From an uncultured Eubacteriales bacterium (GTDB taxonomy: Bacteria > Bacillota > Clostridia > Christensenellales > UBA1242), in contig CADAJB010000028.1 in assembly GCA_902788085.1 (NCBI GenBank), forward strand, positions 1-11,494: 11,494 nucleotides of DNA, written 5' to 3'. The position numbers and the translations under genes were made by a program. Every line of letters begins with the position of its first letter. Positions within the stretch are counted from its first letter, which is position 1. This document shows, in pieces, positions 1-11,494 of this stretch. The notes under the pieces were generated by a model that was not told the origin of the DNA, made no database searches, and saw only the letters and a program-made list of their open reading frames with translations.

Positions 1-10
1 AACATATAAT

Positions 11-42
11 ACACAAAACAAGCATCATTGCTTGTTTTGTGT
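11..42. terminator. Perfect 14-bp inverted repeat, probable bidirectional intrinsic terminator
   Basis: ACACAAAACAAGCA (11..24), loop TCAT (25..28), TGCTTGTTTTGTGT (29..42). A T-rich run follows on the plus strand (43..59). The TGA stop of the minus-strand 326-aa gene (25..27) lies in the loop. Confidence 0.5.
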
Positions 43-1005
43 TAATTTTTCAATTTTTTGTTTAGAGTTTTCACCAAAAGTGATTATAATGGTGCCATCT
101 TTAAGTTTTTTGGAATAACCACCAACAAAGCCATTTTCTTGTAATTCTAAAAATTGATCATAATATTGTTTAACAAGCGGATCAGCGTCACCTTCTATTT
201 CTGGAATGTTTATTGGTTCTCTGGATAGTCCGTCATAATAATCAGAATATGAAACAGCAAGACCGCATATATGATGAACATCTATTTTGTCACTTAAATC
301 ACAAATTAAGCTCTCATCTCTTGCCCCTAATGATTTATCTGGTTTAATTATTAAATAACCAGAATCCAATACTCTAAGAAAAAATGCTTCTCCATTAAAA
401 AGTAACTTTTTTCTGAAATTTAATTGCATATCAACAATTTCACGACCAGCGATACCAAAAGAAGGACTGTTCCATATATCTAAAGATATGTAATCAACAT
501 TCGATTTTTTTATTGTATTGAAATCAAATTCCATATCTAGGCTTTCGCATGTGCAATTAGGATATGGTTTTGACCAAGTCAAAATAACACCATCCCCTTT
601 AATTGCAGTGCTTAAGTTCCCCACATAAGTAAAGATTCGCTGCTCGAAATCATAATAATTATCATTATAAACTTTTATAGAATGTATTCCAACATTATTT
701 ACAAGATTAAAAACATAATCCTTTCGGTTCTTTATGTATTGTTTTTTATCATAAACAACATAAGCATTTCTATTACAATAGTAACCTTCATTTTTAGGAG
801 ATATCACAACTTCGCCTTTACAAATAAGTGGACAAGGGCGATTGTCTTTTGCGCTTAGCCCTAGTTTATCCGCAAACAAGATTTCTTTTATTTCAATTTC
901 GTCTTTGTCAAAATCAATAGATTCTCCATTATTAAAAGAAACATTCATCTTGTATAATTGAAAATTTTTAAATTTATCTTTAGAAGCATAATATGTTTCT
1001 GCCAT
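25..1005 (-). CDS. Hypothetical cytoplasmic protein, 326 aa, no family recognised
   Basis: Long ORF. ATG at 1003..1005 sits 7 nt after a GGGAGA RBS (complement of 1013..1018). TGA stop at 25..27. No signal peptide, TM segment or catalytic motif that I can name. Confidence 0.8.
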   Translation of the reverse strand: MAETYYASKDKFKNFQLYKMNVSFNNGESIDFDKDEIEIKEILFADKLGLSAKDNRPCPLICKGEVVISPKNEGYYCNRNAYVVYDKKQYIKNRKDYVFNLVNNVGIHSIKVYNDNYYDFEQRIFTYVGNLSTAIKGDGVILTWSKPYPNCTCESLDMEFDFNTIKKSNVDYISLDIWNSPSFGIAGREIVDMQLNFRKKLLFNGEAFFLRVLDSGYLIIKPDKSLGARDESLICDLSDKIDVHHICGLAVSYSDYYDGLSREPINIPEIEGDADPLVKQYYDQFLELQENGFVGGYSKKLKDGTIIITFGENSKQKIEKLTQNKQ

Positions 1006-1112
1006 AAATTAATCTCCCTTATATTAAAAATTCACCCAATAATTATATACCATATTTTACCATAAAAGTAAATAAAAACGCAAATTCTAGTTCATAAGAT
1101 TTACACTATATT

Positions 1113-1202
1113 TGGCGGAGAGAAGAGGATTCGAACCTCCGGATGCTTTTACACATCGCACGCTTTCCAAGCGTGTGCCTTAAACCACTCGACCATCTCT
1201 CC
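1113..1202 (-). tRNA. tRNA-Ser, anticodon GGA, type II with long variable arm and encoded CCA
   Basis: The reverse complement folds by hand into a cloverleaf. Acceptor stem GGAGAGA/TCTCTCC, 3-bp D stem, anticodon stem CACGC/GCGTG with loop TTGGAAA (anticodon GGA). Variable-arm stem GATG/CATC, T arm GGAGG-TTCGAAT-CCTCT, discriminator G, then CCA. Total 90 nt. Confidence 0.95.
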
Positions 1203-1217
1203 AAGTGCCTTTAAAAA

Positions 1218-1246
1218 AGTTTAAACAAAAACATAATAATTGTCAA
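1218..1246 (-). promoter_or_regulatory. Sigma-A type promoter for tRNA-Ser
   Basis: On the minus strand: TTGACA (1241..1246), 17-nt spacer, TAAACT (1218..1223). This places the start about 9 nt upstream of the tRNA 5' end. Confidence 0.5.
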
Positions 1247-1270
1247 GTAGGTTTTTATTTTTACCAAAAC

Positions 1271-1300
1271 AAAAAAAGAATTAGCGTTTTTACTAATTCT
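1271..1300 (-). terminator. Rho-independent terminator after the 415-aa gene
   Basis: 8-bp stem AGAATTAG (1277..1284) / CTAATTCT (1293..1300) with an 8-nt loop. On the minus strand it is followed by a T run (complement of 1271..1276). It lies 10 nt past the TAA stop. Confidence 0.7.
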
Positions 1301-1309
1301 TTTTAATTA

Positions 1310-2557
1310 TTAAATTGCAGGGCCACGTGGGTATAATATACCATTGTATGATTGACTTATAGCGGTATTAACTGTTGTATCGCTACCATTTCTATACAAA
1401 GCACCATTTGTGCGGTAGTTGTTTAAAGATATTGTATAACCCGCAAACAAGCCTTGATTGTTGCCCACTAAGTCGCAACTAATTTTATAGTAGTAATAGT
1501 AAGTGTTTTTGTTTAAGTTTAAATTTGAACCGTCTTGGTTATATATTTTTACATTGCTGCTGGTTCTTAATTTTTGACAAGAAATATTTAAATTTTGCAA
1601 TGTAAATGTTGTGGTGTTTTGTCCGTTTAAATCGGATAGTATTATTGTGTTTATATATTTATATTCGGGGTTAGCGGGATATGAGCAACTTGTTATTGCT
1701 GCATCTGTGCCTACTTTTAAGCCTTCTTGATAATATGCGTTAGCAATATCCGACATATACGCTATCCAAAGCGCCAATGCACATTGCCCTAAATAATATA
1801 CATAAACACTTGTACAACTTGGCTGGCTAAAATCTATTGTTACACGATTTGTAGTATGAGTAAAGAATGAACCCGCTGTGCCACCATTAGATTGATAATA
1901 CATACAGTGGAATAACTCTTTTAACACACAGTCCCTTGCGGTTGCATCATCGGCATGCGTGTAGTTAGCGTCGTATTTAGTTGATGCCTTGTCTTCTTGG
2001 GTATCTAGCCTTCCGTCAAAATTTACGCCGTTGGTTTGAATTTCTAATGTGGTTAAATTTTTACAACCTTCGAATGACCTACAAAAAAAGTCGTTAAATA
2101 ATATTAAGTTTGGTTGAATACATAATTTTTCTAAATTGTCGGCATTATCCGCCCCAACTAATTGTGCTACCGTATATGTGTTTTTCACAGTTGAAGAACC
2201 ATCTGAACCAGTTTTTGTTATTGTTACATTTCCACCACTACCACCCGCATCGTAGTTGTATGGTAGTGTGGCGGTGTTAGAATCATCTACATACAACCCA
2301 CCTTCGTTTACTACAACTTTATCTCCCACAACTTGCACAGCAGGTGTTCCGTCTGCGGTTTCGTTAAATGGTTGTTCGGAAGAAGGAGTGCCACCAAACC
2401 CCCAGTTGCCTGTTATTGCAATGTTACCGTCTTTGCTAGAAAGGGCATTACCATTAAAAAGCCAAGTAGAAAAACCTATGTTAGTTGTTGCTAACATTAA
2501 AACAATTGTTAAAATTATTGAAAAAAACACTTTGTTTAATTTAACAATTTTTTTCAT
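1310..2557 (-). CDS. Secreted Cys-rich protein, 415 aa, with a TasA/SipW-cognate-like signal peptide; mature domain unrecognised
   Basis: AGGAAG RBS (complement of 2563..2568) lies 5 nt before the ATG. N-terminus is MKKIVKLNK, then a hydrophobic helix, then GFSTWLFNGNALSSKDGNIAITG. There are 10 Cys, one FxxCxxLxxL motif of the BspA-LRR type (FEGCKNLTTLEI), and the composition is rich in N/T/Y/G. Confidence 0.85.
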   Translation of the reverse strand: MKKIVKLNKVFFSIILTIVLMLATTNIGFSTWLFNGNALSSKDGNIAITGNWGFGGTPSSEQPFNETADGTPAVQVVGDKVVVNEGGLYVDDSNTATLPYNYDAGGSGGNVTITKTGSDGSSTVKNTYTVAQLVGADNADNLEKLCIQPNLILFNDFFCRSFEGCKNLTTLEIQTNGVNFDGRLDTQEDKASTKYDANYTHADDATARDCVLKELFHCMYYQSNGGTAGSFFTHTTNRVTIDFSQPSCTSVYVYYLGQCALALWIAYMSDIANAYYQEGLKVGTDAAITSCSYPANPEYKYINTIILSDLNGQNTTTFTLQNLNISCQKLRTSSNVKIYNQDGSNLNLNKNTYYYYYKISCDLVGNNQGLFAGYTISLNNYRTNGALYRNGSDTTVNTAISQSYNGILYPRGPAI

Positions 2558-2710
2558 TTTTTCTTCCTTGATTTTTACTTGTTTATTTTTTTATCCCCTA
2601 TTTTTTAGTATTAGAACTTGTTTTTGTTATTTGTTTTACCGCTTGACTTTTTGTTTGCGTTGCGGGTTTTGTTGGTGTTTTTGTTTCTGCCTTATGGTTA
2701 TTAGGTTTTT

Positions 2711-3814
2711 CTAAATCTTGTGCTGTGTAGATGCTTTTTGCATTGCTACTTTTTGCCTTATGCTTTGTGGAAGTTTAGCCGGCAATTTTGGTGGCAGTTT
2801 GTTAGGTAACTTAGGCGGTGGTTTTGGTGCCGTTTTTGGTTGTGCTGCTGGTTTTACAGGCAAACTTGGTTTTTTTGTTATTTGTTTTGGTTGTGGTGTT
2901 AATTTTTGTTTTTTGTTTGTCTGTTCTGGTTTTAACCCCAACACAACCAATCGGTTATTATACTCTGCCTCTATGCGTTTGGCTGTAACATTTGTTACCA
3001 CCATAATACCCACCGAAACAATAATAGTGTATATACCAAAAACCGAACTTAAAAACAGAATAGGAAAACCAAGTTTTCTAATTATTTCGCCTGTGGCAAC
3101 ACCTTCAATTTTATCGTAACTAACCATTTGTGTTTGTGTTGGGTATAAATCACCCATAAACACAAACATAAATTCTTGCCCACCTTCGTGGTTGGTTATT
3201 TGCTTTATAGACACAAGTCTGTGCACCAAAACCATATCTCCATATTTAAAAGCAAACACTTTATTTAAATATTTTGATGCATAAGTTGTGCCTATTGTGG
3301 CACCATTTTGTGTTAAATATGGTTGGCCGTGTTCGTCTTTATCTATTAAATCTTCTAAACTGGGTGCTGGGTTAAAGTATAAAATATCGCCACGGGCAAA
3401 TTGTTTTTCTACCATTTCAGGTGTTAAATATCCGCCGTGCTCTACAAGTTGATTATAATAGTCTTTTTCGTCGGCTATACTTGACATCGAGTTAGACACT
3501 ATAACCAGCCTGCCCCTATCAAATAGATAAACAATATTTCCGCCATCTTTTACAATAACAGCATAGACAGTTAAAGAGAATAAACAAAAAATAAGGACAA
3601 GCATAATCATTGAGACAATCAACCCCACAACACGGCGGTTTTTTCTCACAGGTTTTTGTCCATATTCTTTTTTTATAAATTCATCTTTCTGTCCATTATT
3701 AACTAATATTTTTTCACTTTTGTATATAGCGACGCACGATATTATCAAAAAAGTTAGAATAACAACAGAAATGAATACTAAAAATATCCAAGTTATCCAA
3801 TTTTCTAGATACAT
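2711..3814 (-). CDS. ER/archaeal-type (S26B, SipW-like) signal peptidase I with an extra N-terminal TM and a Pro/Lys-rich C-terminal tail, 367 aa
   Basis: Motifs read by eye: box B VIVSNSMSS (Ser109), box C GDILYF, box D LVHRLVS (His198-Arg, not the Lys of LepB type), box E MGDLY..SYDKIEG. Predicted TM helices at about residues 6-30, 62-88 and 250-275. The tail from 295 to 367 is K/P/Q-rich. No obvious RBS at the ATG; the gene starts 46 nt after the upstream gene. Confidence 0.7.
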   Translation of the reverse strand: MYLENWITWIFLVFISVVILTFLIISCVAIYKSEKILVNNGQKDEFIKKEYGQKPVRKNRRVVGLIVSMIMLVLIFCLFSLTVYAVIVKDGGNIVYLFDRGRLVIVSNSMSSIADEKDYYNQLVEHGGYLTPEMVEKQFARGDILYFNPAPSLEDLIDKDEHGQPYLTQNGATIGTTYASKYLNKVFAFKYGDMVLVHRLVSIKQITNHEGGQEFMFVFMGDLYPTQTQMVSYDKIEGVATGEIIRKLGFPILFLSSVFGIYTIIVSVGIMVVTNVTAKRIEAEYNNRLVVLGLKPEQTNKKQKLTPQPKQITKKPSLPVKPAAQPKTAPKPPPKLPNKLPPKLPAKLPQSIRQKVAMQKASTQHKI

Positions 3815-3860
3815 AAAAACTACTTAACTATATTTTTATAAACAAAAGTAAATAATCAAA

Positions 3861-4454
3861 CTATGCTACTTCTGCTGCTACTGTTATAGCTAATGTTATG
3901 CCAGCACTTTGTAATGCGGCATATTGTGTTGTGTTTGTTGGTTTACCTGTGCTCCAAGTAAATGTTGGTAAAGTGTAGGCTGCGCTTGCAGTAGAACCGT
4001 TTAAACTTGCTGCTGCAATACTACCATCAGTTTTAGTAAAGTATGTACCATTGTTTGTTAATGTTTCGGTTGGTGTAAATGTTGCCGAAGCAATAGTTAA
4101 ATTAGCATCAGCACCAGCATATTTTACATAAACGGTTTGAAGTCTAGCATTGTATAAGCCATCAACATAAGTTGTGCCACCAGTGTCTTGTGCCGAATCG
4201 TATTGTGTTGTGCTTAAAAATGGCTCGTGATTTTGGTCCATAATTAAATATACATTACCTAATGCGGCTGTGCATGCCGAATCTGTATAGAATGTAACAG
4301 TACCAGCACTTGTAGAAGATGCTGTTAGTTGCACATTAATGTTTTGACTATCACTTGTTGCACCTGTGTTAAATACCCATGCTGCCATACCTACGCCAAA
4401 TAACATAGTGATAGACAAAATAGATGCAAGTGTTATTTTGCTTAATAACTTCAT
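3861..4454 (-). CDS. Secreted Thr/Ala/Ser-rich protein, 197 aa, with a TasA/SipW-cognate-like signal peptide; possible fibre or matrix subunit
   Basis: AAGGAGA RBS (complement of 4462..4468) lies 7 nt before the ATG. N-terminus is MKLLSK, then a hydrophobic helix, then GMAAWVFNTGATSDSQNINV. The mature part has one Cys, alternating beta-like T/A/S/V/Y composition, and no C-terminal anchor. Confidence 0.85.
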   Translation of the reverse strand: MKLLSKITLASILSITMLFGVGMAAWVFNTGATSDSQNINVQLTASSTSAGTVTFYTDSACTAALGNVYLIMDQNHEPFLSTTQYDSAQDTGGTTYVDGLYNARLQTVYVKYAGADANLTIASATFTPTETLTNNGTYFTKTDGSIAAASLNGSTASAAYTLPTFTWSTGKPTNTTQYAALQSAGITLAITVAAEVA

Positions 4455-4485
4455 AATTAAATCTCCTTTTTTTGTTTGTAATATA

Positions 4486-4515
4486 ATTATACTTTTTTTA
4501 TTTTTTATTTATCAA
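4486..4515 (-). promoter_or_regulatory. Strong sigma-A type promoter of the three-gene secretion operon
   Basis: On the minus strand: TTGATA (4510..4515), 18-nt spacer, TATAAT (4486..4491). It lies about 30 nt upstream of the RBS of the 197-aa gene and downstream of the metG terminator. Confidence 0.6.
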
Positions 4516-4588
4516 ACATATGCCTGCCTAAATAACGGCAGTATCGTTTACAATTTTTATCTTGTGTAAAATTTTATATTATATATAT

Positions 4589-4614
4589 AAAAAAGGACCA
4601 ACTTTTGGTTAGTC
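4589..4614 (-). terminator. Rho-independent terminator of metG
   Basis: On the minus strand: GACTAAC, loop CAAAA, GTTGGTC. This is a 7-bp stem including one U-G pair (4596..4614), followed by T6 (complement of 4589..4594). It begins 3 nt after the TAA stop. Confidence 0.7.
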
Positions 4615-4617
4615 TTT

Positions 4618-6558
4618 TTAAATTTGTGTTGGGTGTTTTTTAAAGAAATCAAACTTAGGTGGAAGAAATTCAAAACTTGTTACGCTTGGGTATAAAGTGC
4701 TGTAAGTTTTTTCTATATTATCCCAATTAAAAATATTTTTATCCATTTTAAAATATTTAGCCACCAATTCACTACCCTCGGGTGCTATTGGGTGTAAAAG
4801 TGGAACACAAACTTTTATTGCGTGCAAGGTGTCGGCTATTAATTGTGCTTTAACATTTAAATCTTCGCTTTTAGATAGTGTTGCCCAATTTTGATTAACT
4901 TTTCGTAGATATTCGTCTAACAAAATTATTACATCCGAAAACTTAAATTCGGCAACTTTTTGCTGGTAGTTTTCGGCAAGAAGTGTTGCTTCGGCTATAA
5001 TATTGTTTTGTGGTTCCGCACTAGGAATAACGCCATTAAACAATGTTTGAACACTATATAAAACCGACCTAACAATTCGGTTAAAGATATTTGTTAGCAT
5101 ATTGCCCTGTGCAACAACTGGGTCGCCTGATTTTTCAAACTCGGCAGGCTGGAACACCTTAGATTTAAACTGGTATGCTGCATTATTTACATTCATACTT
5201 AAAAAGTGGCATCGTAGTTGTTCATAGGTGTAGTGGTCTAAAAGTTCGTCTGTTGTTGGGGCACGGTATTGCCCACTACTGCTTGCTTTTATACCATTAA
5301 ACAAAATATGTTTTAGTGGCACAAAATTAGATATTTGTATTTTACCATCTTCGGGTGCAATGTTGTGGCTGTTATTTAGCCCCATAATAATTGCAGGTTG
5401 TGCAAGACAATAAAAATAAATATTATCTTCGCCCAAAAATTGAACAATTTGGCAATCTTTACTTGCCCACCAATCTTTCCAACTTTGTGTGCTGTTTGTT
5501 TCTTTTAGATACATTTTAGTAAAAGATATTGGTGCCCATAAAGATTCGGGCCACACATAAAAAGTTAAACCTTTTGTATCTTCTTCTACTTGTGGCACAG
5601 GCACACCCCAAGCCGAATTACCTGTTATGCGGAAAGGTGCAAGTGTTTTGTTTGTAGCAAACCTAACATCTTTTTGTGTAAGAATATTGCACGCAACATC
5701 GCGGTCGGCAACTTTTTCGAATGTAAATTCTATTCTGCCTTTGTTTTCGTCTATTTTTTTCTCTAAATATTTAAAACTTACATTTTCTAACTTATTGCTA
5801 TCTTCGGTTTTAACATACAAGGCTGGGCGTGTTAAATAATCTCGCATTTCTTTTAGCATAAATTTGTGCACGCTTGGGCTTTCTTTTATTTTGTTAATCA
5901 TTTCAAAAAATTCGTTGCGGTAGTCATCTAGCGACACATAGTAGTTTACAATAGACTTAAATATAGGTTTTGTGTATGTTATTGTGCTAATTGGGTTTAT
6001 AAGTTCTTTTGGGTCGTATTGATGCCCAAGCGAACATTCGTCGGCATACCCAACTTCCGATTTACAGCCTTCTATTGGGCACTTACCTTCTACTTGCCTA
6101 CCATTTAAAACCATATTGGCTTTTTCGTCAAAAAACTGCTCGGTTTTGCGTTTTATTAACTTGCCATTTTTTAACAAAGTTTTAAAAACTTCGGCCGAAA
6201 CTTCTTTGTGCACATCATACGCAGGTTTTAAACAAGATGCATAAAACCTGTTAAAAGATATGTGATATTTTTGTGCTGTTTCTTTTTGAATGTTATGAAA
6301 TTTTGTTATGTATTCTTCTAGTGTTAAATCGGTTTCGCCATTTTGTTTAAGTTTGCGGTACTTTTCTTCGGTGGACGAACCAAACCCGTCGGTTCCGCAC
6401 AAGTACAAAACATTTTGCTCACCTATTCTATCTCGCATATAGCGGGCATAAAAATCCGAAATTATAAAGTTGGAAATATGCCCTATATGCAAAGGCTTGT
6501 TACCATTTGGCATACCTGCACTTATAAAAACTCGTTTAGGAAAATTTATTGTCTTCAT
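4618..6558 (-). CDS. metG: Methionine--tRNA ligase (class I aaRS), 646 aa, no C-terminal Trbp111/EMAPII domain
   Basis: PNGNKPLHIGH (HIGH motif), CGTDGFG, and a MetRS connective-peptide knuckle CPIEGCKSEVGYADECSLGH. Also WGVPVP and YVWPESL, with a KMSKS-position loop FNGIKASSSGQ. I place the start at ATG 6556..6558, which is 6 nt after an AAGGAG RBS (complement of 6565..6570). The ORF-track start at 6609 has no RBS. Confidence 0.93.
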   Translation of the reverse strand: MKTINFPKRVFISAGMPNGNKPLHIGHISNFIISDFYARYMRDRIGEQNVLYLCGTDGFGSSTEEKYRKLKQNGETDLTLEEYITKFHNIQKETAQKYHISFNRFYASCLKPAYDVHKEVSAEVFKTLLKNGKLIKRKTEQFFDEKANMVLNGRQVEGKCPIEGCKSEVGYADECSLGHQYDPKELINPISTITYTKPIFKSIVNYYVSLDDYRNEFFEMINKIKESPSVHKFMLKEMRDYLTRPALYVKTEDSNKLENVSFKYLEKKIDENKGRIEFTFEKVADRDVACNILTQKDVRFATNKTLAPFRITGNSAWGVPVPQVEEDTKGLTFYVWPESLWAPISFTKMYLKETNSTQSWKDWWASKDCQIVQFLGEDNIYFYCLAQPAIIMGLNNSHNIAPEDGKIQISNFVPLKHILFNGIKASSSGQYRAPTTDELLDHYTYEQLRCHFLSMNVNNAAYQFKSKVFQPAEFEKSGDPVVAQGNMLTNIFNRIVRSVLYSVQTLFNGVIPSAEPQNNIIAEATLLAENYQQKVAEFKFSDVIILLDEYLRKVNQNWATLSKSEDLNVKAQLIADTLHAIKVCVPLLHPIAPEGSELVAKYFKMDKNIFNWDNIEKTYSTLYPSVTSFEFLPPKFDFFKKHPTQI

Positions 6559-6599
6559 TGTTTGCTCCTTAAAGTTAAAACTTATAGGTATTTTTAAAA

Positions 6600-6628
6600 A
6601 GTTTATCACAGTAAATTAAATTTTGCAA
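6600..6628 (-). promoter_or_regulatory. Sigma-A type promoter of metG with an extended -10
   Basis: On the minus strand: TTGCAA (6623..6628), 17-nt spacer, TGaTAAACT (-10 hexamer at 6600..6605). Confidence 0.5.
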
Positions 6629-6644
6629 TAATTTTGTGTATAAA

Positions 6645-7739
6645 CTACCAATTAAAAGAATTATTATTGTTGTTTATAAAAAATTGCTTTCTATCTACAT
6701 AAATATTGTTTATATTTACCCCGTCATCGTTTAATACAAACGAGGTTGCACCATTTAAATTAACTATGCCATCATCATAAAAACCGCCCAACTCGCCTGT
6801 TTTGGTGGCAAAAGTTAGCCTTACGCCATTATACTTTATTGTAAAATTGTTTCCGTGCTGATGCCCACAAACAACATCTAATACACCGCGTTCTTTTGCT
6901 GCATCAAAAAAACCATTTTGCATTGTTCCACTTAATGAATAATGCACATGCACATCGTTTATTGCTTCTGCTTCGGCACTGCCACTTCTGTATTTGTTAT
7001 ACGCCACAGAATACTCGGGCAAAGGCTTGTGCATAAAACACATAGCAGAGGTATATTCTCCGCCATTTGCTTGTTTTATCCCCTCGGCATTCCATTTAAA
7101 CCACTCTATTTGCTGTGTGGTTATTACATCTTCATAACCTGCATCTAGCATATATAGTGTTTTATAAATTTTATTTTCTTCCATAATATTAATAACATAA
7201 TTGACTAAAGTACCTAAATTGGAAGGCCCACGGTTAAACAAACAATATTTGCCTTTTTCGTATAATTCGCAACAATAATTTAATTCAGCCACCGCCGAAT
7301 TTTTTGTGTTGCCATAATCGTGGTTGCCAAAAACTGGCGCATAAGGTATTTTAAAACTATCTAACCAACCAATTAAAGATTTTAAACTAATTAAGTTTTC
7401 GTTGCTCCAAGTTTGGTCGCCTGTTAGGGTTATTAAATTTGGTTTTGTTTGTTCTATTAAATAAGATATTTCTTTATATATAATTTTTCTATTAAAAAAA
7501 TCTTCTAAATCGCACATTTGCACATCGGCTAAATTTAAAATTACAAAATCTTTGTCTTTTTGTTTTTGCACTGTGGCAATATTTTGTAGTTTAAACTCGT
7601 CTTCTACTCTCCACGGATTGTTTATTTGCGTGCCTTTATAATGATGAACAAGCAAAAAATATGCACTTGCCGAAAAAACAACCACAACGCTAAAAAGTAT
7701 AGATAAAATAAATATTAAAATTATCTTGCCTTTTTTCAT
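6645..7739 (-). CDS. Membrane-anchored (signal-anchor) calcineurin-like metallophosphoesterase, 364 aa
   Basis: N-terminus MKKGKIILIFILSILFSVVVVFSASA. Metallophosphoesterase motifs appear in order: LADVQ (motif I variant), TGDQ, GNHD, MHKP, GHQHGN. Confidence 0.85.
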   Translation of the reverse strand: MKKGKIILIFILSILFSVVVVFSASAYFLLVHHYKGTQINNPWRVEDEFKLQNIATVQKQKDKDFVILNLADVQMCDLEDFFNRKIIYKEISYLIEQTKPNLITLTGDQTWSNENLISLKSLIGWLDSFKIPYAPVFGNHDYGNTKNSAVAELNYCCELYEKGKYCLFNRGPSNLGTLVNYVINIMEENKIYKTLYMLDAGYEDVITTQQIEWFKWNAEGIKQANGGEYTSAMCFMHKPLPEYSVAYNKYRSGSAEAEAINDVHVHYSLSGTMQNGFFDAAKERGVLDVVCGHQHGNNFTIKYNGVRLTFATKTGELGGFYDDGIVNLNGATSFVLNDDGVNINNIYVDRKQFFINNNNNSFNW

Positions 7740-7827
7740 AATCTACCAACTTTGGTATATTATATCATAATATTTTTAGTAAACAAATAAAAATTGAACA
7801 AAATAAATATTAGATTATTATTTATAA

Positions 7828-7857
7828 TTGACATATAAAAATTTTTTATTCTACAAT
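7828..7857 (+). promoter_or_regulatory. Sigma-A type promoter for the plus-strand membrane protein gene
   Basis: TTGACA (7828..7833), 18-nt spacer, TACAAT (7852..7857). GGTGA RBS at 7877..7881 precedes ATG 7885. Confidence 0.55.
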
Positions 7858-7884
7858 AACAAAAAACAAATATTTTGGTGAAAA

Positions 7885-8073
7885 ATGGACAAAAAACAAA
7901 AGATTTCTTTAATTTTTAGTATAATTATAGTTATATTGGCTGTTGTGGGCAGTATTTTTTGTTTTGGCGAAATTTATTTAGTATATACAAAACCACTTGA
8001 CCACGGCATAAGGTTGTTAAAATTTTTTACCGTGCAATCTAATGTTCTTGCAGGCATAACTTCGCTTTTATAA
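7885..8073 (+). CDS. N-terminal fragment (62 aa) of a polytopic membrane protein, possibly Pr6Pr-like; interrupted by a frameshift
   Basis: Promoter, RBS and ATG are all present. It has one TM helix and then KFFTVQSNVLAGITSLL before a TAA at 8071..8073. The reading frame continues naturally in frame +2. Confidence 0.7.
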   Translation: MDKKQKISLIFSIIIVILAVVGSIFCFGEIYLVYTKPLDHGIRLLKFFTVQSNVLAGITSLL

Positions 8074-8086
8074 TATTATTTACCTT

Positions 8087-8548
8087 TTGCGCGAAAACAA
8101 AACAAAAAAACCTATCCCTAAGGCTGTGCATATATTAAGATATATTGCAACTATCGACTTAGTTGTTACTTTCTTGGTGATAGCACTACTACTAGGCTTT
8201 ATTGTAGATGAAGGGTATTTCTCGTTGTATGTAAACGCAAACTTCTTCTTTCATTTTGCAATACCAGTATTAAACCTAATAAGTTTTATTGTTTTTGAAA
8301 AACCCCAAAAATTAAACTTCAAAGATACTTTTATTGGTGTTGTTCATCTAATTTTATACAGCATATTTTATATAACCGTTGTGTTACTTAACTATCACGA
8401 TGGCACAGTGCCATTAGAACACGACTGGTATGGCTTTGCACAACTTGGGCCGGGCGTAGCTTTTGTGTGCTTTGTTGTTATATTAGGCGTTGGATATTTA
8501 ATTGCGTATTTGTTATATAAATTAAAAAACAAGAATAATAAAGAATAA
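8087..8548 (+). CDS. C-terminal fragment (153 aa as listed) of the same polytopic membrane protein
   Basis: The listed start is a TTG with no RBS. This frame is open from 8060 and overlaps the end of the upstream fragment. It contains 4 to 5 further TM helices (FHFAIPVLN, DWYGF) and a basic C-terminus. Confidence 0.7.
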   Translation: MRENKTKKPIPKAVHILRYIATIDLVVTFLVIALLLGFIVDEGYFSLYVNANFFFHFAIPVLNLISFIVFEKPQKLNFKDTFIGVVHLILYSIFYITVVLLNYHDGTVPLEHDWYGFAQLGPGVAFVCFVVILGVGYLIAYLLYKLKNKNNKE

Positions 8549-8572
8549 AAAATCTCTTTCGAGATTTTTTTT
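8547..8572. terminator. Bidirectional intrinsic terminator between convergent genes
   Basis: AAAAAATCTC (8547..8556), loop TTTC, GAGATTTTTT (8561..8570). The A run on one side and T run on the other would serve both strands. Confidence 0.7.
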
Positions 8573-8584
8573 GTTTAACTTGCC

Positions 8585-9157
8585 TTAATTATTTTTATGA
8601 AGTAGCATAAAAACCTTTTTACACGAAAAATCGGTGCCTAGTTTTAACCCCAATTTATTTAAAACATTTTTCATATATTCAAATTTTTCTTGCGGTGTAA
8701 GGTTTTTCATTGTTTCGTCTTCTTCGTATTCTATAAAAATGCCTAAGTCTTTAATTATTTGCACCACAAAAGAAGTTTTGCCTTTTTCGTACACATACGA
8801 ATTATTTTCTACTTTACAATAATTATTTAACCCTGCTAGAGTAAAAACCTTTAACGAACTTTTTAGGTCGGCTAAATTTGTTTTTTCTTTTTCTTCGTAA
8901 ATTACATTGCCCTTATCGTCTAAGTGTTTACTTTTATAGCAAAGTTGTATTTGTGGTGTAGCATCTATAATTTCTCTAACCAAAAAAGAGTTGTTTATTA
9001 AGTCTAAATATTCCATATCTAAAACATTATCAATTTTTGAAAAATACCAATCATTTAACTGGTAGTTTTCAACCATTTTAAAACCTTTATTTTTTAAAGT
9101 TTCATCAATTTTTGCAAAGTTATCAAATACTTGCACTGTTATTTCTGTTTCTTTCAT
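8585..9157 (-). CDS. CYTH-like domain protein (class IV adenylyl cyclase / triphosphate tunnel metalloenzyme-like), 190 aa
   Basis: The size fits. The N-terminal strand is KETEITVQV, where ExExK is expected. Charged beta-strand pattern includes FLVREI, CYKSKH and YEEKEK. The C-terminal motif LGIFIEYEED is typical of CyaB/CYTH proteins. G-rich RBS (GGGGGG) precedes the ATG. Confidence 0.5.
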   Translation of the reverse strand: MKETEITVQVFDNFAKIDETLKNKGFKMVENYQLNDWYFSKIDNVLDMEYLDLINNSFLVREIIDATPQIQLCYKSKHLDDKGNVIYEEKEKTNLADLKSSLKVFTLAGLNNYCKVENNSYVYEKGKTSFVVQIIKDLGIFIEYEEDETMKNLTPQEKFEYMKNVLNKLGLKLGTDFSCKKVFMLLHKNN

Positions 9158-9201
9158 AGCACCGCCCCCCTTGCTAATTTTTTATAATATATTTTTATGT
9201 A

Positions 9202-9723
9202 TTAATTATTGTATGTTAAAATCTCACAATTTTTTAGTACTAATTTATTATAATTAAAATCTTTTGGTTCGCCTTCAAAAAAACATCTTGTATAAATTAT
9301 TACCCCAGAATGCGTAACAACCAAAACATTCTTTCCTTTATAGTTGTTTGTTATATCTTGCCAAAAATCAAAAATACGCTTTCTAAAATCTTTTATGTTT
9401 TCAATATTAAACCGTTTTTCGTTTTCGTCATTAAAATTAATGTCTTTGGGCACATATTTTGCCAACTTGCCTTCAAGTTCACCGTTGCTTCTTTCTATAA
9501 GTCTATCGTCAGTTATAACCGGCAACTTTGTTATAATCTGTGCCGTCTGCAATGTTCTTTTTAATGGACTAGAAAAAACGGCATCAAAATTAACATCTTT
9601 TAGTTTTTCAGCAGTTTGTTCTGCCTGCAAAACACCTTGCATATTTATCTCTATATCTGCTCTGCCCGCAATTCTTTTTTCTTTATTCCAATCGGTTTGA
9701 CCGTGTCTAACTATGTAAATCAT
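9202..9723 (-). CDS. Histidine phosphatase family protein (phosphoglycerate mutase-like branch), 173 aa
   Basis: N-terminal IYIVRHGQTDWN (RHG catalytic motif), internal SSPLKRTLQTA, distal VVTHSGVI. GGGGAAG RBS precedes the ATG. Confidence 0.88.
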   Translation of the reverse strand: MIYIVRHGQTDWNKEKRIAGRADIEINMQGVLQAEQTAEKLKDVNFDAVFSSPLKRTLQTAQIITKLPVITDDRLIERSNGELEGKLAKYVPKDINFNDENEKRFNIENIKDFRKRIFDFWQDITNNYKGKNVLVVTHSGVIIYTRCFFEGEPKDFNYNKLVLKNCEILTYNN

Positions 9724-9797
9724 TACTTCCCCTTTATATAATATAAATAAACTTGTTAGTTACACCCACTCGTCTTCACAAAATGCCATTAATTTGT

Positions 9798-9826
9798 ATT
9801 ATATCAGCATCTATTTATAGCATTAA
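9798..9826 (-). promoter_or_regulatory. Candidate promoter with an extended -10 for the histidine phosphatase and CYTH genes
   Basis: On the minus strand: TGaTATAAT (9798..9806), with a weak -35 TTAATG (9821..9826) at 17-nt spacing. Confidence 0.4.
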
Positions 9827-9854
9827 AATTTTACCTATTTTATGCTGTTAAATC

Positions 9855-10187
9855 TTACCTTAATATAACAGATTCAAACCACTGCTCTTGAAACTCTGTA
9901 AGGGCCCTTATTTGCTCGTCTGTATAATTTCTTCCTTCTTTCATAACAACAAGTTTATCGTCATTGTCATTTGTTCGATGTATTATTGCCACAACTTTGC
10001 CCGTAAATTCATTTAGCGGTTCGTGTTCGCCTAATACATAAGCGTCAAGTTCTTCACCATCACCCGAAATTGTATTTGGAATATATCCATAATTTACAGG
10101 GTAAATAAAGCCGTGTTTTGGGTGTTTAGTTCCAAGTGGTCTATCCATAACAACTTTTACTATTTTACCTAAATAATCTTTAACCAT
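9855..10187 (-). CDS. Short family-I inorganic pyrophosphatase-like protein, 111 aa
   Basis: YPVNYGYIPNTISGDGEELDAYVLG aligns by eye with the E. coli Ppa segment [23 protein letters not shown], and NDNDDKLVV aligns with the DEAGEDAKLVAV region. I place the start at ATG 10185..10187, 7 nt after a GGAGGT RBS (complement of 10195..10200). The promoter lies inside the longer ORF-track extension. Confidence 0.75.
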   Translation of the reverse strand: MVKDYLGKIVKVVMDRPLGTKHPKHGFIYPVNYGYIPNTISGDGEELDAYVLGEHEPLNEFTGKVVAIIHRTNDNDDKLVVMKEGRNYTDEQIRALTEFQEQWFESVILR

Positions 10188-10218
10188 AATACATACCTCC
10201 ATTAACATACTTTTTGTG

Positions 10219-10247
10219 AGTTTACAACAAATTATAATTAATGTCAA
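10219..10247 (-). promoter_or_regulatory. Sigma-A type promoter of the PPase-like gene
   Basis: On the minus strand: TTGACA (10242..10247), 17-nt spacer, TAAACT (10219..10224). Confidence 0.55.
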
Positions 10248-10373
10248 CCACACTAAATATTAATCTTTTAAATATTAAGTTATTATAACAAATTAATAAT
10301 ATTTGACATTATGCTTAAAAAAATATATTCTTAAATTATATGATTATTTTTTGATACAAAAAAATAATTAATA

Positions 10374-10382
10374 TGTTATACT
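10374..10382 (+). promoter_or_regulatory. Candidate extended -10 element for the plus-strand membrane protein gene
   Basis: TGtTATACT at 10374..10382, about 45 nt upstream of ATG 10428. The nearest -35-like hexamer, TTGATA (10351..10356), is at a non-optimal 20-nt spacing. Confidence 0.35.
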
Positions 10383-10427
10383 TTAAAAGATAAAATAAAA
10401 GGTTATATCCCCCAAAGGAGATATCGC

Positions 10428-11494
10428 ATGAACAAAAAAGAATTATAGTTTTTTCAATTTTGGCACTACTTGCTGTTGTTATGATTGTGATAAGTTTGTT
10501 TTTGCCAGCAGTTCATTTAGTTGCAAAAGACATTGATCAAACTATTGTGTATAACAAAACAATAAGTCTTTTAGATTATTTTAAAGATGCCCCATTTTTT
10601 AACACTGCCGCAAGTGAAGTTTATTTCCATTCTTCAGGACCAGTTTGGATGGCAACTGGTTCACTTATGCTTTTGGTTTTGCCAGCACTTCTTGGAATAA
10701 TTATGTTTGTTTTGTGTGTTTTAGAAATTTGTTTTTACAGGGCAAACAATATGAACATTAAAAACAATACCCTTGCAAAAAAGTTTTCAATTTTTGCTGG
10801 TTTAACCACCTTTGTTTGTTCTGCATTTGCTATTATATCATTTGCAACAACAACTATGATGGCAAATGGTTATATGGAATTTGGCTTAACATTTGGTCCG
10901 TTTGGTTTGGCAGTGGTTGGCCTGATTTCAACAATTTTGGCAGGTCTTTCGGGCAATCGTGAAAAAGAGCAACCAACAAACAAAGTAAAAAACAGTGTTG
11001 GCTTTGCACTAGTTGCCATTTTCACCTTAGTATGTGCCGCAATTCCTTTTTTGCCTTTTTATACGGAAAACTTCTTTGACCCAAGTGTAATAACAATGTG
11101 GCAGGCCGCAGGCAAGGCGGGCGAACTCCAAACTGATGCAAATATTACAAATATGCTTGGGGATTATCCTTTCGGGTTTGCGCAATGGACAATTATTATT
11201 CTTCTGTTGGTATGTGCTTTGATTTTTGTTTATGCACTGGTTGGGTTTATTCGTGCTCTTTCTGCGAAAACAACAAATTGGCTTTCGTTACGAGTAAAAA
11301 GATGGACGATGACCCTTGCTGTCATTTTTAGCGTTTTATTGTTCCTTGTGTTGTGTCAGATTGGCGTAATGTCCAGCACCTTAGTTATTGTTGATGGTGT
11401 TAACAAAATTTTTATGCTGGCTGCAATTAGTAGCGTTTATGTTGTGCTTCCATTTATTCCATATATATTATCAACCACAATATCTGTTAACAAA
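10428..11494 (+). CDS. Large polytopic membrane protein, at least 350 codons, 3'-partial (runs off the window); its ATG and RBS are out of frame with the body
   Basis: This ORF is not in the supplied track. I translated it by hand: the frame containing 10439 is open without a stop from 10394 to 11494. It encodes about 8 hydrophobic helices (..IIVFSILALLAVVMIVISLFLP.. through ..VYVVLPFIPYILSTTISVNK). AAAGGAGA RBS at 10414..10421 precedes ATG 10428, but that frame reads MNKKEL and stops at TAG 10446. Confidence 0.8.

Follow-up and report, generated by a model that had tools for sequence, protein, structure and literature searches.

A candidate secretion module of the tapA-sipW-tasA kind, with a divergent signal peptidase and a distinct leader motif, in an uncultured low-GC bacterium

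The stretch of DNA analysed here (the window) comprises 11,494 nucleotides from an uncultured Eubacteriales bacterium (GTDB lineage Bacteria; Bacillota; Clostridia; Christensenellales; UBA1242; assembly GCA_902788085.1, contig CADAJB010000028.1, positions 1 to 11,494) and has a G+C content of ~32%. It contains an operon of three genes, in which a predicted membrane-bound signal peptidase is encoded between two putatively secreted proteins, here called cargo 1 and cargo 2. We consider it probable that this locus forms an autonomous module for secretion and processing, of the tapA-sipW-tasA kind, with a single transcript supplying cargo 1, a dedicated S26B-type peptidase and a variable cargo 2.

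The operon and its predicted signal peptidase

A first-pass annotation of the window, made from the sequence alone, had described three co-directional genes behind one promoter with no terminator between them. The genes and the TTGATA-18-TATAAT site were found at the coordinates it gave (Table 1), and the gaps between the three genes are short. The operon-end hairpin was missed by a consensus terminator scan because its stem is A+T-rich. The claim that internal terminators are absent stands for strong ones; a single weak terminator-like match was detected inside the peptidase gene (3399-3387, 5-bp stem), which is probably due to chance.

The annotation had also quoted S26B boxes for the middle protein, and all of them were located in it: SNSMS, RGDILYF, VHRLV and GDLYPTQTQMVSYDKIEG. 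A word-indexed homologue search returned three non-self relatives with 38-44% identity. When the window peptidase and these three relatives were combined into a 4-sequence profile (A1), an exhaustive search with hidden Markov models (HMMs) retrieved 491 proteins at E<=1e-3, 187 of them at E<=1e-10. One hundred of the 491 were aligned (A2). Scanned singly, 90 of these 100 relatives matched NF046067 (SipW) and 86 matched TIGR02228 (archaeal-type signal peptidase I), with a best E of ~1e-20, and the A2 profile matched human SEC11A/SEC11C (2.6e-10 to 1.3e-9). In the alignment with SEC11A, the S-x-S-M box of the family falls on the SGSME position, its I-H-R box on V-H96-R-V and its R-G-D-A-N box on K-G-D-N-N. 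The earlier assignment of the middle protein to the archaeal/endoplasmic reticulum (ER) type was thus borne out through its relatives (86/100 and 90/100), not by a direct match to TIGR02228. By homology, the middle gene appears to encode a divergent S26B (SipW/Sec11-type) signal peptidase, linked to the family transitively and strongly, with predicted activity.

Residue conservation was counted on an hmmalign alignment of 150 family representatives. S109, M110, H198, R199, G221, D222 and G249 were invariant in all 150, and likewise in the 100 sequences of A2. The placing of Ser109 and His198 at the catalytic positions, as the first-pass annotation had it, is upheld by this invariance and by their alignment with the SEC11A boxes. 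The use of His rather than Lys as the general base is a mark of ER/archaeal-type signal peptidases.

An AlphaFold2 model of the peptidase built on the 100-sequence alignment (predicted local distance difference test, pLDDT, 87.1; predicted template-modelling score, pTM, 0.73) begins with helices at 2-39, 44-52 and 58-90, continues with a beta-domain (95-245) and further helices (249-291), and ends in a tail that is K/P-rich and disordered; an earlier model from 4 sequences was unusable (pLDDT 49.5). Membrane helices are predicted at about 7-30, 63-88 and 248-275, a topology in which the catalytic beta-domain (95-245) would be extracytoplasmic and the K/P-rich tail cytoplasmic. A Foldseek search of the PDB with this model gave SEC11C as the best match (E=0.016), together with S. 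pyogenes SipA and the C-terminal domains of LexA and lambda repressor; against BFVD, only small SH3-like barrels were returned. The predicted fold is consistent with the S26B assignment and does not constitute independent proof of it.

The Ser box lies near residue 100-110 in almost all family members, and in the window protein the residues before it are modelled as an extra N-terminal membrane helix followed by a cytoplasmic loop. Asp44 in this loop was kept in 143 of the 150 relatives. This loop joins the first two membrane helices (residues 30-60; about 3635-3727 in the window) and carries a G-x-x-D-x-E-I motif that includes Asp44 and, to our knowledge, has no counterpart in SipW or Sec11 sequences. 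In the subclade to which the window protein belongs, moreover, the Ser box is followed by an insertion of ~25 residues and the His box is preceded by a second insertion. The peptidase cluster members range from 299 to 405 amino acids (aa). Some relatives (P0052, P0072, P0107, P0113 and the gene at 4849-6840 of L026) reach 660-1049 aa, with large extensions after the last membrane helix, and the cytoplasmic C-terminus is highly variable across the family, being a K/P-rich, repeat-like tail in the window protein.

Table 1. Features of the operon and its surroundings in the window
Feature	Position	Strand	Remarks
Sigma-70-type promoter-like site TTGATA-18-TATAAT	4486..4515	-	11/12 consensus match; top site within 1000-4800
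Ribosome-binding site AGGAG	4463-4467	-	8 nt 5' of the cargo 1 ATG at 4454
Cargo 1, 197 aa	3861..4454	-	Open reading frame (ORF); first gene of the operon
Cargo 1 leader, G20-V-G-M-A-A-W-V-F-N29	4368..4397	-	Close variant of the family consensus
S26B-type signal peptidase (predicted), 367 aa	2711..3814	-	ORF; middle gene of the operon
A6 tract in the peptidase gene	3639..3644	-	A5 in three near-identical assemblies
Ser109 codon, predicted nucleophile (S-N-S-M box)	3488..3490	-	150/150; aligned to the SEC11A SGSME box
His198 codon, predicted general base (V-H-R-L box)	3221..3223	-	150/150; aligned to SEC11A His96
Asp222 codon (G-D box; equivalent of SEC11A D116)	3149..3151	-	Invariant, 150/150
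1-nt deletion and substitution relative to other strains	2725..2727	-	Shortens the cytoplasmic tail of the peptidase
Cargo 2, 415 aa	1310..2557	-	ORF; third gene of the operon
Cargo 2 leader, N26-I-G-F-S-T-W-L-F-N35	2453..2482	-	Variant of the cargo 2 consensus
Terminator-like hairpin and U-run, operon end	1266..1304 (about)	-	13-bp stem; dG -11.8 kcal/mol; z -4.1; 0/200 shuffles as stable
metG (methionyl-tRNA synthetase)	4618-6609	-	Upstream neighbour of the operon
Intrinsic terminator of metG	4596..4614	-	7-bp stem and T-run directly behind the stop codon of metG; bounds the operon on its upstream side
tRNA-Ser(GGA)	1113-1202	-	Downstream of the operon; own promoter

Leader motif and cargo proteins

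Both flanking proteins begin with what looks like an ordinary Sec signal peptide, with a basic n-region, an h-region of ~14 residues and a c-region of small residues. The leader segments AAWVFNTGATSDSQNINV and STWLFNGNALSSKDGNIAI are present in the two cargo proteins, confirming the earlier observation that the flanking proteins carry nearly the same segment, and this segment was found in cargo genes alone. In strict or relaxed form the motif occurred in no non-cargo ORF among the 287 ORFs of the window and of the related loci L001-L029, and six-frame scans of the window, L034, L001 and L003 found it nowhere outside cargo genes.

Aligned on its Trp, the cargo 1 leader has the consensus G(-6)-[VT]-G-F-A-A-W-T-F-[TN]-N, in which G(-6), A(-2) and W(0) were invariant in 24/24 sequences; the cargo 2 consensus is G-[TVS]-[TG]-[YF]-[SA]-[AS]-W-x-F-[NT]-[ND]. 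The W-x-F-N signal named by the first-pass annotation is therefore conserved in part: W-x-F is kept among orthologues, the last position is [TN], and the whole is preceded by G-x-G-[FY]-[AS]-[AS]. The motif is near-invariant even though the mature regions of cargo 1 proteins are only ~25% identical. Because the -3/-1 rule fits the first Ala or Ser, cleavage is predicted after that residue, between A24 and A25 in cargo 1 and between S30 and T31 in cargo 2. The motif runs past this predicted site, and its conservation exceeds that of any mature segment.

Cargo 1 and cargo 2 resemble each other only over their first ~45 residues. Simple paralogy or duplication does not explain the common leader, because the mature parts of the two proteins are unrelated. 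One leader on unrelated mature domains, encoded beside the same peptidase, has the appearance of a cognate signal. Other readings of the leader were rejected: a type IV pilin-like (class III) leader, since the motif stands after the hydrophobic core and not before it, and a lipobox, since Cys is absent. An LPXTG or other C-terminal sorting signal was also rejected, none being present in either cargo. Separately, most cargo 2 proteins, whatever their mature domain, have a second short motif, V-[PT]-x-W-x-F, ~12-16 residues past the leader Trp. It was not found in cargo 1, and its form in the window is I-A-I-T-G-N-W-G-F at about 2395-2425.

The mature domains of the cargo proteins had been described as unassignable to TasA/peptidase M73 or any other family, and they stayed so. 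A word-indexed search of 5.8 billion proteins with cargo 1 and cargo 2 yielded only near-identical copies of themselves; neither window protein matched a family in Pfam, NCBIfam or PHROGs; and comparison of two cargo 1 profiles (A3 and A5) and the cargo 2 sequence with PDB sequences gave nothing convincing, the cargo 1 profiles finding no TasA. Cargo 1 represents a conserved family of ~200 aa without a known homologue. The A5 profile had a weak match to a filamin immunoglobulin-like (Ig-like) repeat (E=0.0094), which is a mere hint of a beta-sandwich in cargo 1.

Cargo 2, by comparison of its sequences, appears to be an interchangeable third slot whose mature domain is swapped between lineages. 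In one group (~250 aa) LRR_5 repeats (BspA-type, PF13306) were detected with a best E of 5e-15, and LRR_5 was found in 5 of the 16 cargo 2 proteins of alignment A7. The other kinds comprise a group of ~320 aa, proteins with Ig-like domains and singletons such as the 415-aa protein of the window, which had no LRR_5 match. BspA-type leucine-rich repeat (LRR) proteins are a family annotated as surface adhesins.

Synteny, phage copies and strain variation

About 25 related contigs, of bacteria and of phages, carry the module. In every locus found with the peptidase as the query (L001/2/5, L003, L004, L006, L007, L008, L037 and L038), a gene encoding ~160-200 aa lies directly upstream of the peptidase gene, and the products of these upstream genes align over their full length with window cargo 1 at 18-28% identity. 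Conversely, cargo 1 retrieved homologues in 21 metagenome and 4 IMG/VR loci. The metagenome search was seeded by the cargo 1 alignment alone; of its 17 loci with enough downstream sequence to be informative, 16 have the peptidase gene directly downstream, at a distance of a few dozen bases at most, L029 being the exception. This bears out the conserved synteny that the first-pass annotation had called for. In 17 loci a third gene follows, also with this kind of leader, and the three-gene order persists even where the peptidases share only 20-40% identity. A scan of GTDB genomes found a single locus, in a metagenome-assembled genome of an uncultured Bacilli member from reindeer, and record names such as STEW19, XIEF21 and Reindeer suggest the ruminant gut as the source of the module-bearing records.

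These findings bear on whether the peptidase might be the general, housekeeping type I signal peptidase of an organism with a reduced genome, flanked by ordinary secreted paralogues whose leaders are alike by duplication. The low G+C context (about 32%) would suit such a genome, neither the 11.5-kb window nor the 20-kb context of L034 showed a second signal peptidase, and the leaders look like normal Sec signal peptides. However, synteny of all three genes is maintained across such divergent peptidases, phage contigs carry the peptidase together with cargo, the mature parts of the two cargo proteins are unrelated, and the motif extends past the predicted cleavage site while being more conserved than mature segments. 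We regard a housekeeping role as very unlikely, and the claim of the first-pass annotation that these genes form a dedicated peptidase-plus-cargo module appears sound, given the synteny, the exclusivity of the leader and the S26B homology.

Four IMG/VR contigs of 67-146 kb carry the module beside genes for dUTPase, a PhoH-like protein and a phage nucleotidyltransferase. The module genes of L019, L025, L031 (the L011 contig) and L033 (the L027 contig) contain in-frame TGA codons at conserved positions where relatives have Trp, for example in G-L-A-W-L-G-Y, from which these contigs were concluded to read TGA as Trp. Their ORF content rose 1.3- to 1.7-fold when TGA was translated as Trp, as did that of L030. 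Short peptidase ORFs in L011, L019 and L027 were considered as truncations and rejected, as the genes are intact with TGA read as Trp. The contigs that use TGA in this way, predicted to be phage contigs, appear to derive from recoded phages or from hosts with genetic code 4. A tblastn search of GenBank phages with the peptidase gave no match, and the literature found for SipW and phage described no phage-borne SipW.

The module could on this evidence be mainly a phage or mobile accessory cassette that alters the host surface, for example in superinfection exclusion or adhesion, with the window copy domesticated or a remnant. In keeping with this are the four phage-like contigs, the in-frame TGA codons at conserved Trp positions in several of these copies, as in recoded phages, and the position of the window copy next to a tRNA-Ser gene at which homology between strains breaks off. 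Against it, the neighbours in the window, L001/L005, L003 and L006 are housekeeping or lipid and glycosyl-transferase genes, the module itself is found unchanged on either side of the strain difference, and no PHROG family matched any of the three proteins, the peptidase included. We consider this origin unlikely; it concerns where the module came from and is compatible with the mechanism proposed below.

Three related assemblies (L034-36), 99.4% identical to the window, look bacterial, and neither cargo gene differs between the L034 strain and the window. The window peptidase has 367 aa compared with 405 aa in the intact form, whose stop codon corresponds to about 2598-2600. From 11494 the 99.4% identity reaches as far as 1112, where it breaks off precisely at the 3' end of tRNA-Ser. 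Beyond this gene the window has a strain-specific ORF of 326 aa (25-1005) without a family match, which is the only listed window gene ending in TGA, and window 1-1112 looks like an insertion or replacement at the tRNA site.

Other features of the surroundings were recorded. On the forward strand, two ORFs of 62 and 153 aa at 7885-8548 correspond to one 220-aa membrane-protein gene in L034, the frame of which is broken in the window by an extra A at 8073; the segment 8251-8350 is a dense cluster of substitutions relative to L034. The metG product of the window is very divergent: it scores 234 bits where the curated cut-off of NF001100 is 587, with the best-scoring stretch restricted to the N-terminal ~260 residues. 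None of the 22 called genes of L034 (20.6 kb) ends in TGA (16 TAA, 6 TAG), and the Trp codons of the ten listed window ORFs are all TGG; this organism may avoid TGA or leave it unassigned, a sample of 22 genes and ten ORFs being too small to decide. L034 has adjacent Zot-like and REP_ORF2-G2P genes (1-2113), about 8-10 kb outside the window on its right-hand side, which suggests an integrated filamentous (plectrovirus- or inovirus-like) element.

Proposed mechanism and comparison with known systems

The operon structure, the S26B homology with its catalytic residues, the conservation and exclusivity of the leader and the synteny are observed, and from them we propose the following mechanism. 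Both cargo proteins would enter the Sec pathway by means of a leader ending in G-x-G-F-A-A-W-T-F-[TN]-N. The three-helix membrane peptidase would recognize this motif and cut it, most likely after the first Ala or Ser (between the two alanines of the consensus), a step that is moderately well supported by the sequence comparisons. The cleaved proteins would be released with the new N-terminus A-W-x-F-[TN]. By analogy only, with TasA and TapA, this conserved N-terminal strand might serve as a shared assembly (donor) strand, cargo 1 being the major subunit of a surface or extracellular polymer and cargo 2 an interchangeable adhesin, anchor or nucleator subunit. The dependence of the cargo proteins on this peptidase is inferred, and their polymerization and role as a fibre or adhesin would follow from the same analogy.

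Several observations weigh against this reading. No S26/S24 or signal-peptidase model matched the window peptidase itself (Pfam at E<=0.1; NCBIfam at E<=1, including TIGR02228 and NF046067), and in the PDB both phmmer and the 4-sequence profile met only spurious membrane-protein matches; current annotation models miss this branch of peptidases. The Foldseek matches, all of the S24/S26 clan, had weak E-values (0.016-0.3). TIGR04088, the model of the SipW-cognate class with which the first-pass annotation had proposed to compare the proteins, matched neither the two window cargo proteins (E<=1) nor the 24 cargo 1 proteins (E<=10), and membership of the leaders in that class is not supported; a search of the literature under TIGR04088 found none. 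Similarly, PF12389 (Peptidase_M73) had no match among the window cargo proteins (E<=0.1), the 24 cargo 1 proteins (E<=10) or 16 cargo 2 proteins (E<=1), and an hhalign comparison of the A5 profile with an approximate TasA sequence gave a probability of 7% over the signal peptide only. In L029 (64-1663) an LRR-type gene resembling cargo 2 comes directly after cargo 1, and the 3.5-kb contig has no peptidase gene between the two or near them. Moreover, the A5 form of the A6 tract splits the peptidase, leaving the first membrane helix as a 64-aa ORF and a remainder of 337/343 aa that resembles the two-helix layout of SipW; this polymorphism could reflect phase variation or decay.

To these is added the loss of a catalytic residue. 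The equivalent of SEC11A Asp122 is Asp in 121 of the 150 relatives and Thr228 in the window peptidase; in the nine closest sequences, which form the window subclade, it is replaced by Thr, Tyr or Glu within G-D-[LKA]-Y-P-x-x-x-Q. A G-D-N-N-x-x-x-D box with both Asp residues (SEC11A D116 and D122) was not found in the window peptidase. An Asp122-type residue is needed for activity in Sec11, archaeal and SipW enzymes, and peptidase activity is not assured because the window subclade lacks this third catalytic Asp. The middle protein might instead be an inactive homologue that acts as an assembly chaperone for the flanking proteins, like S. pyogenes SipA/LepA in pilus polymerization. Besides the missing acidic residue, the presence of S. 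pyogenes SipA (4n31) among the best structural matches (probability 0.98) and the escape of the window protein from all curated peptidase HMMs would fit this role. The Ser-x-Ser-Met, His-Arg and Gly-Asp boxes are nonetheless invariant in 150/150 representatives, the window subclade included, which is not expected after loss of catalysis, and the conserved Q229 could replace the missing Asp in orienting the His. We judge an inactive protein very unlikely and retain the reading of an active, dedicated peptidase.

Among the ways in which Gram-positive biofilms acquire protein fibres, modules of the SipW/TasA type are understood best, and archaea have a related route. Like tapA-sipW-tasA of B. subtilis, the window module has an ER-type Ser/His peptidase encoded between two secreted proteins, one conserved and major, the other accessory, and a substrate motif that lies across the cleavage site and the first mature residues. 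TasA is cut between Ala27 and Ala28 within T-W-A-A-F-N-D (PMC9674648), which makes residue 28 the first of mature TasA, and the donor strand that polymerizes the fibre consists of residues 28-38 (PMC9674648, PMC10151520); the N-terminus of TapA resembles this strand (PMC9674648, PMC10151520). The motif of the window module (G-F-A-A-W-T-F-T-N, cut between the alanines) aligns with that of TasA (G-T-W-A-A-F-N-D, likewise cut between the alanines) if two inserted residues, W-T, are allowed after the second Ala.

The differences are also considerable. Compared with SipW, the window-module peptidase has ~100 extra N-terminal residues (a second membrane helix and the conserved cytoplasmic loop with D44), it is not recognized by SipW HMMs, and its subclade is without the third catalytic Asp. 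The aromatic residues of the leader stand in another register than those of TasA, the leader fails TIGR04088, and the cargo proteins have no detectable sequence similarity to TasA/Peptidase_M73. The gene order differs as well, with the conserved cargo first and the variable cargo last. The SipW-cognate motif of TIGR04088 runs ..T-[YF]-A-[YF]-F-[TS]-D.., and the window leader resembles this class in having a short motif of aromatic and small residues at the end of a Sec leader, on a protein encoded beside a SipW-type peptidase; with the motif taken in this form, the spacing differs (A-A-W-T-F-T-N in the window module, A-y-F-T-D in the class).

The sipW-bsaA-bsaB-bsaC operon of C. perfringens is a second example of SipW with its cargo (PMC11580942). 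In common with this operon and with sipW-tasA-calY of B. cereus, where several secreted proteins of the matrix or adhesin kind share a transcript with their own SipW (PMC11580942), modules like that of the window include accessory proteins with adhesive domains: VWA in BsaC (PMC11580942), LRR or Ig-like domains in cargo 2 proteins. In contrast, the cargo of these two operons is TasA-like by sequence or structure and the peptidase gene comes first, whereas in the window module the cargo families are unassigned and the peptidase gene is in the middle. With SEC11A/SEC11C and archaeal signal peptidase I (TIGR02228), the peptidase has the S-x-S-M, H-R and G-D boxes in common. It differs from SEC11A/C in being a single three-helix polypeptide, Sec11 being part of a multi-subunit complex, in the two insertions of a ~25-residue scale and, in the window subclade, in the missing Asp122 equivalent. 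Archaeal bundling pili (AbpA/AbpX) are reported to be TasA-like extracellular donor-strand filaments of small beta-rich subunits with S26B-type processing (PMC9245690, bioRxiv 10.64898/2026.01.04.697558). They are a possible functional analogue of the window module, with no sequence link found.

Taken together, the comparisons suggest a system that works like tapA-sipW-tasA, with a leader and cargo proteins outside the described families. New relative to known modules are the unannotated branch of peptidases with an extra membrane hairpin and, in the window subclade, an altered catalytic triad; the distinct leader motif; the ~200-aa cargo family; and a swappable, adhesin-like second cargo. The hosts, uncultured low-GC gut or rumen Bacilli and large recoded phages, are new as well. 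Tentatively, and with more doubt than attaches to the module itself, we suggest that cargo 1 may found a family of non-TasA fibres in uncultured ruminant-gut Bacilli, with A-W-T-F-[TN] as the donor strand and cargo 2 as the tip or anchor, and that TGA-recoded phages may spread the cassette and remodel the surface of their hosts. The interest of the locus would be higher if this fibre and tip-adhesin model were true, and phages might possibly transfer cassettes for fibres or adhesins from one such host to another. For organisms that no one has grown in culture, the leader motif, the catalytic residues and the predicted cleavage site offer a concrete starting point for tests of their surface structures.

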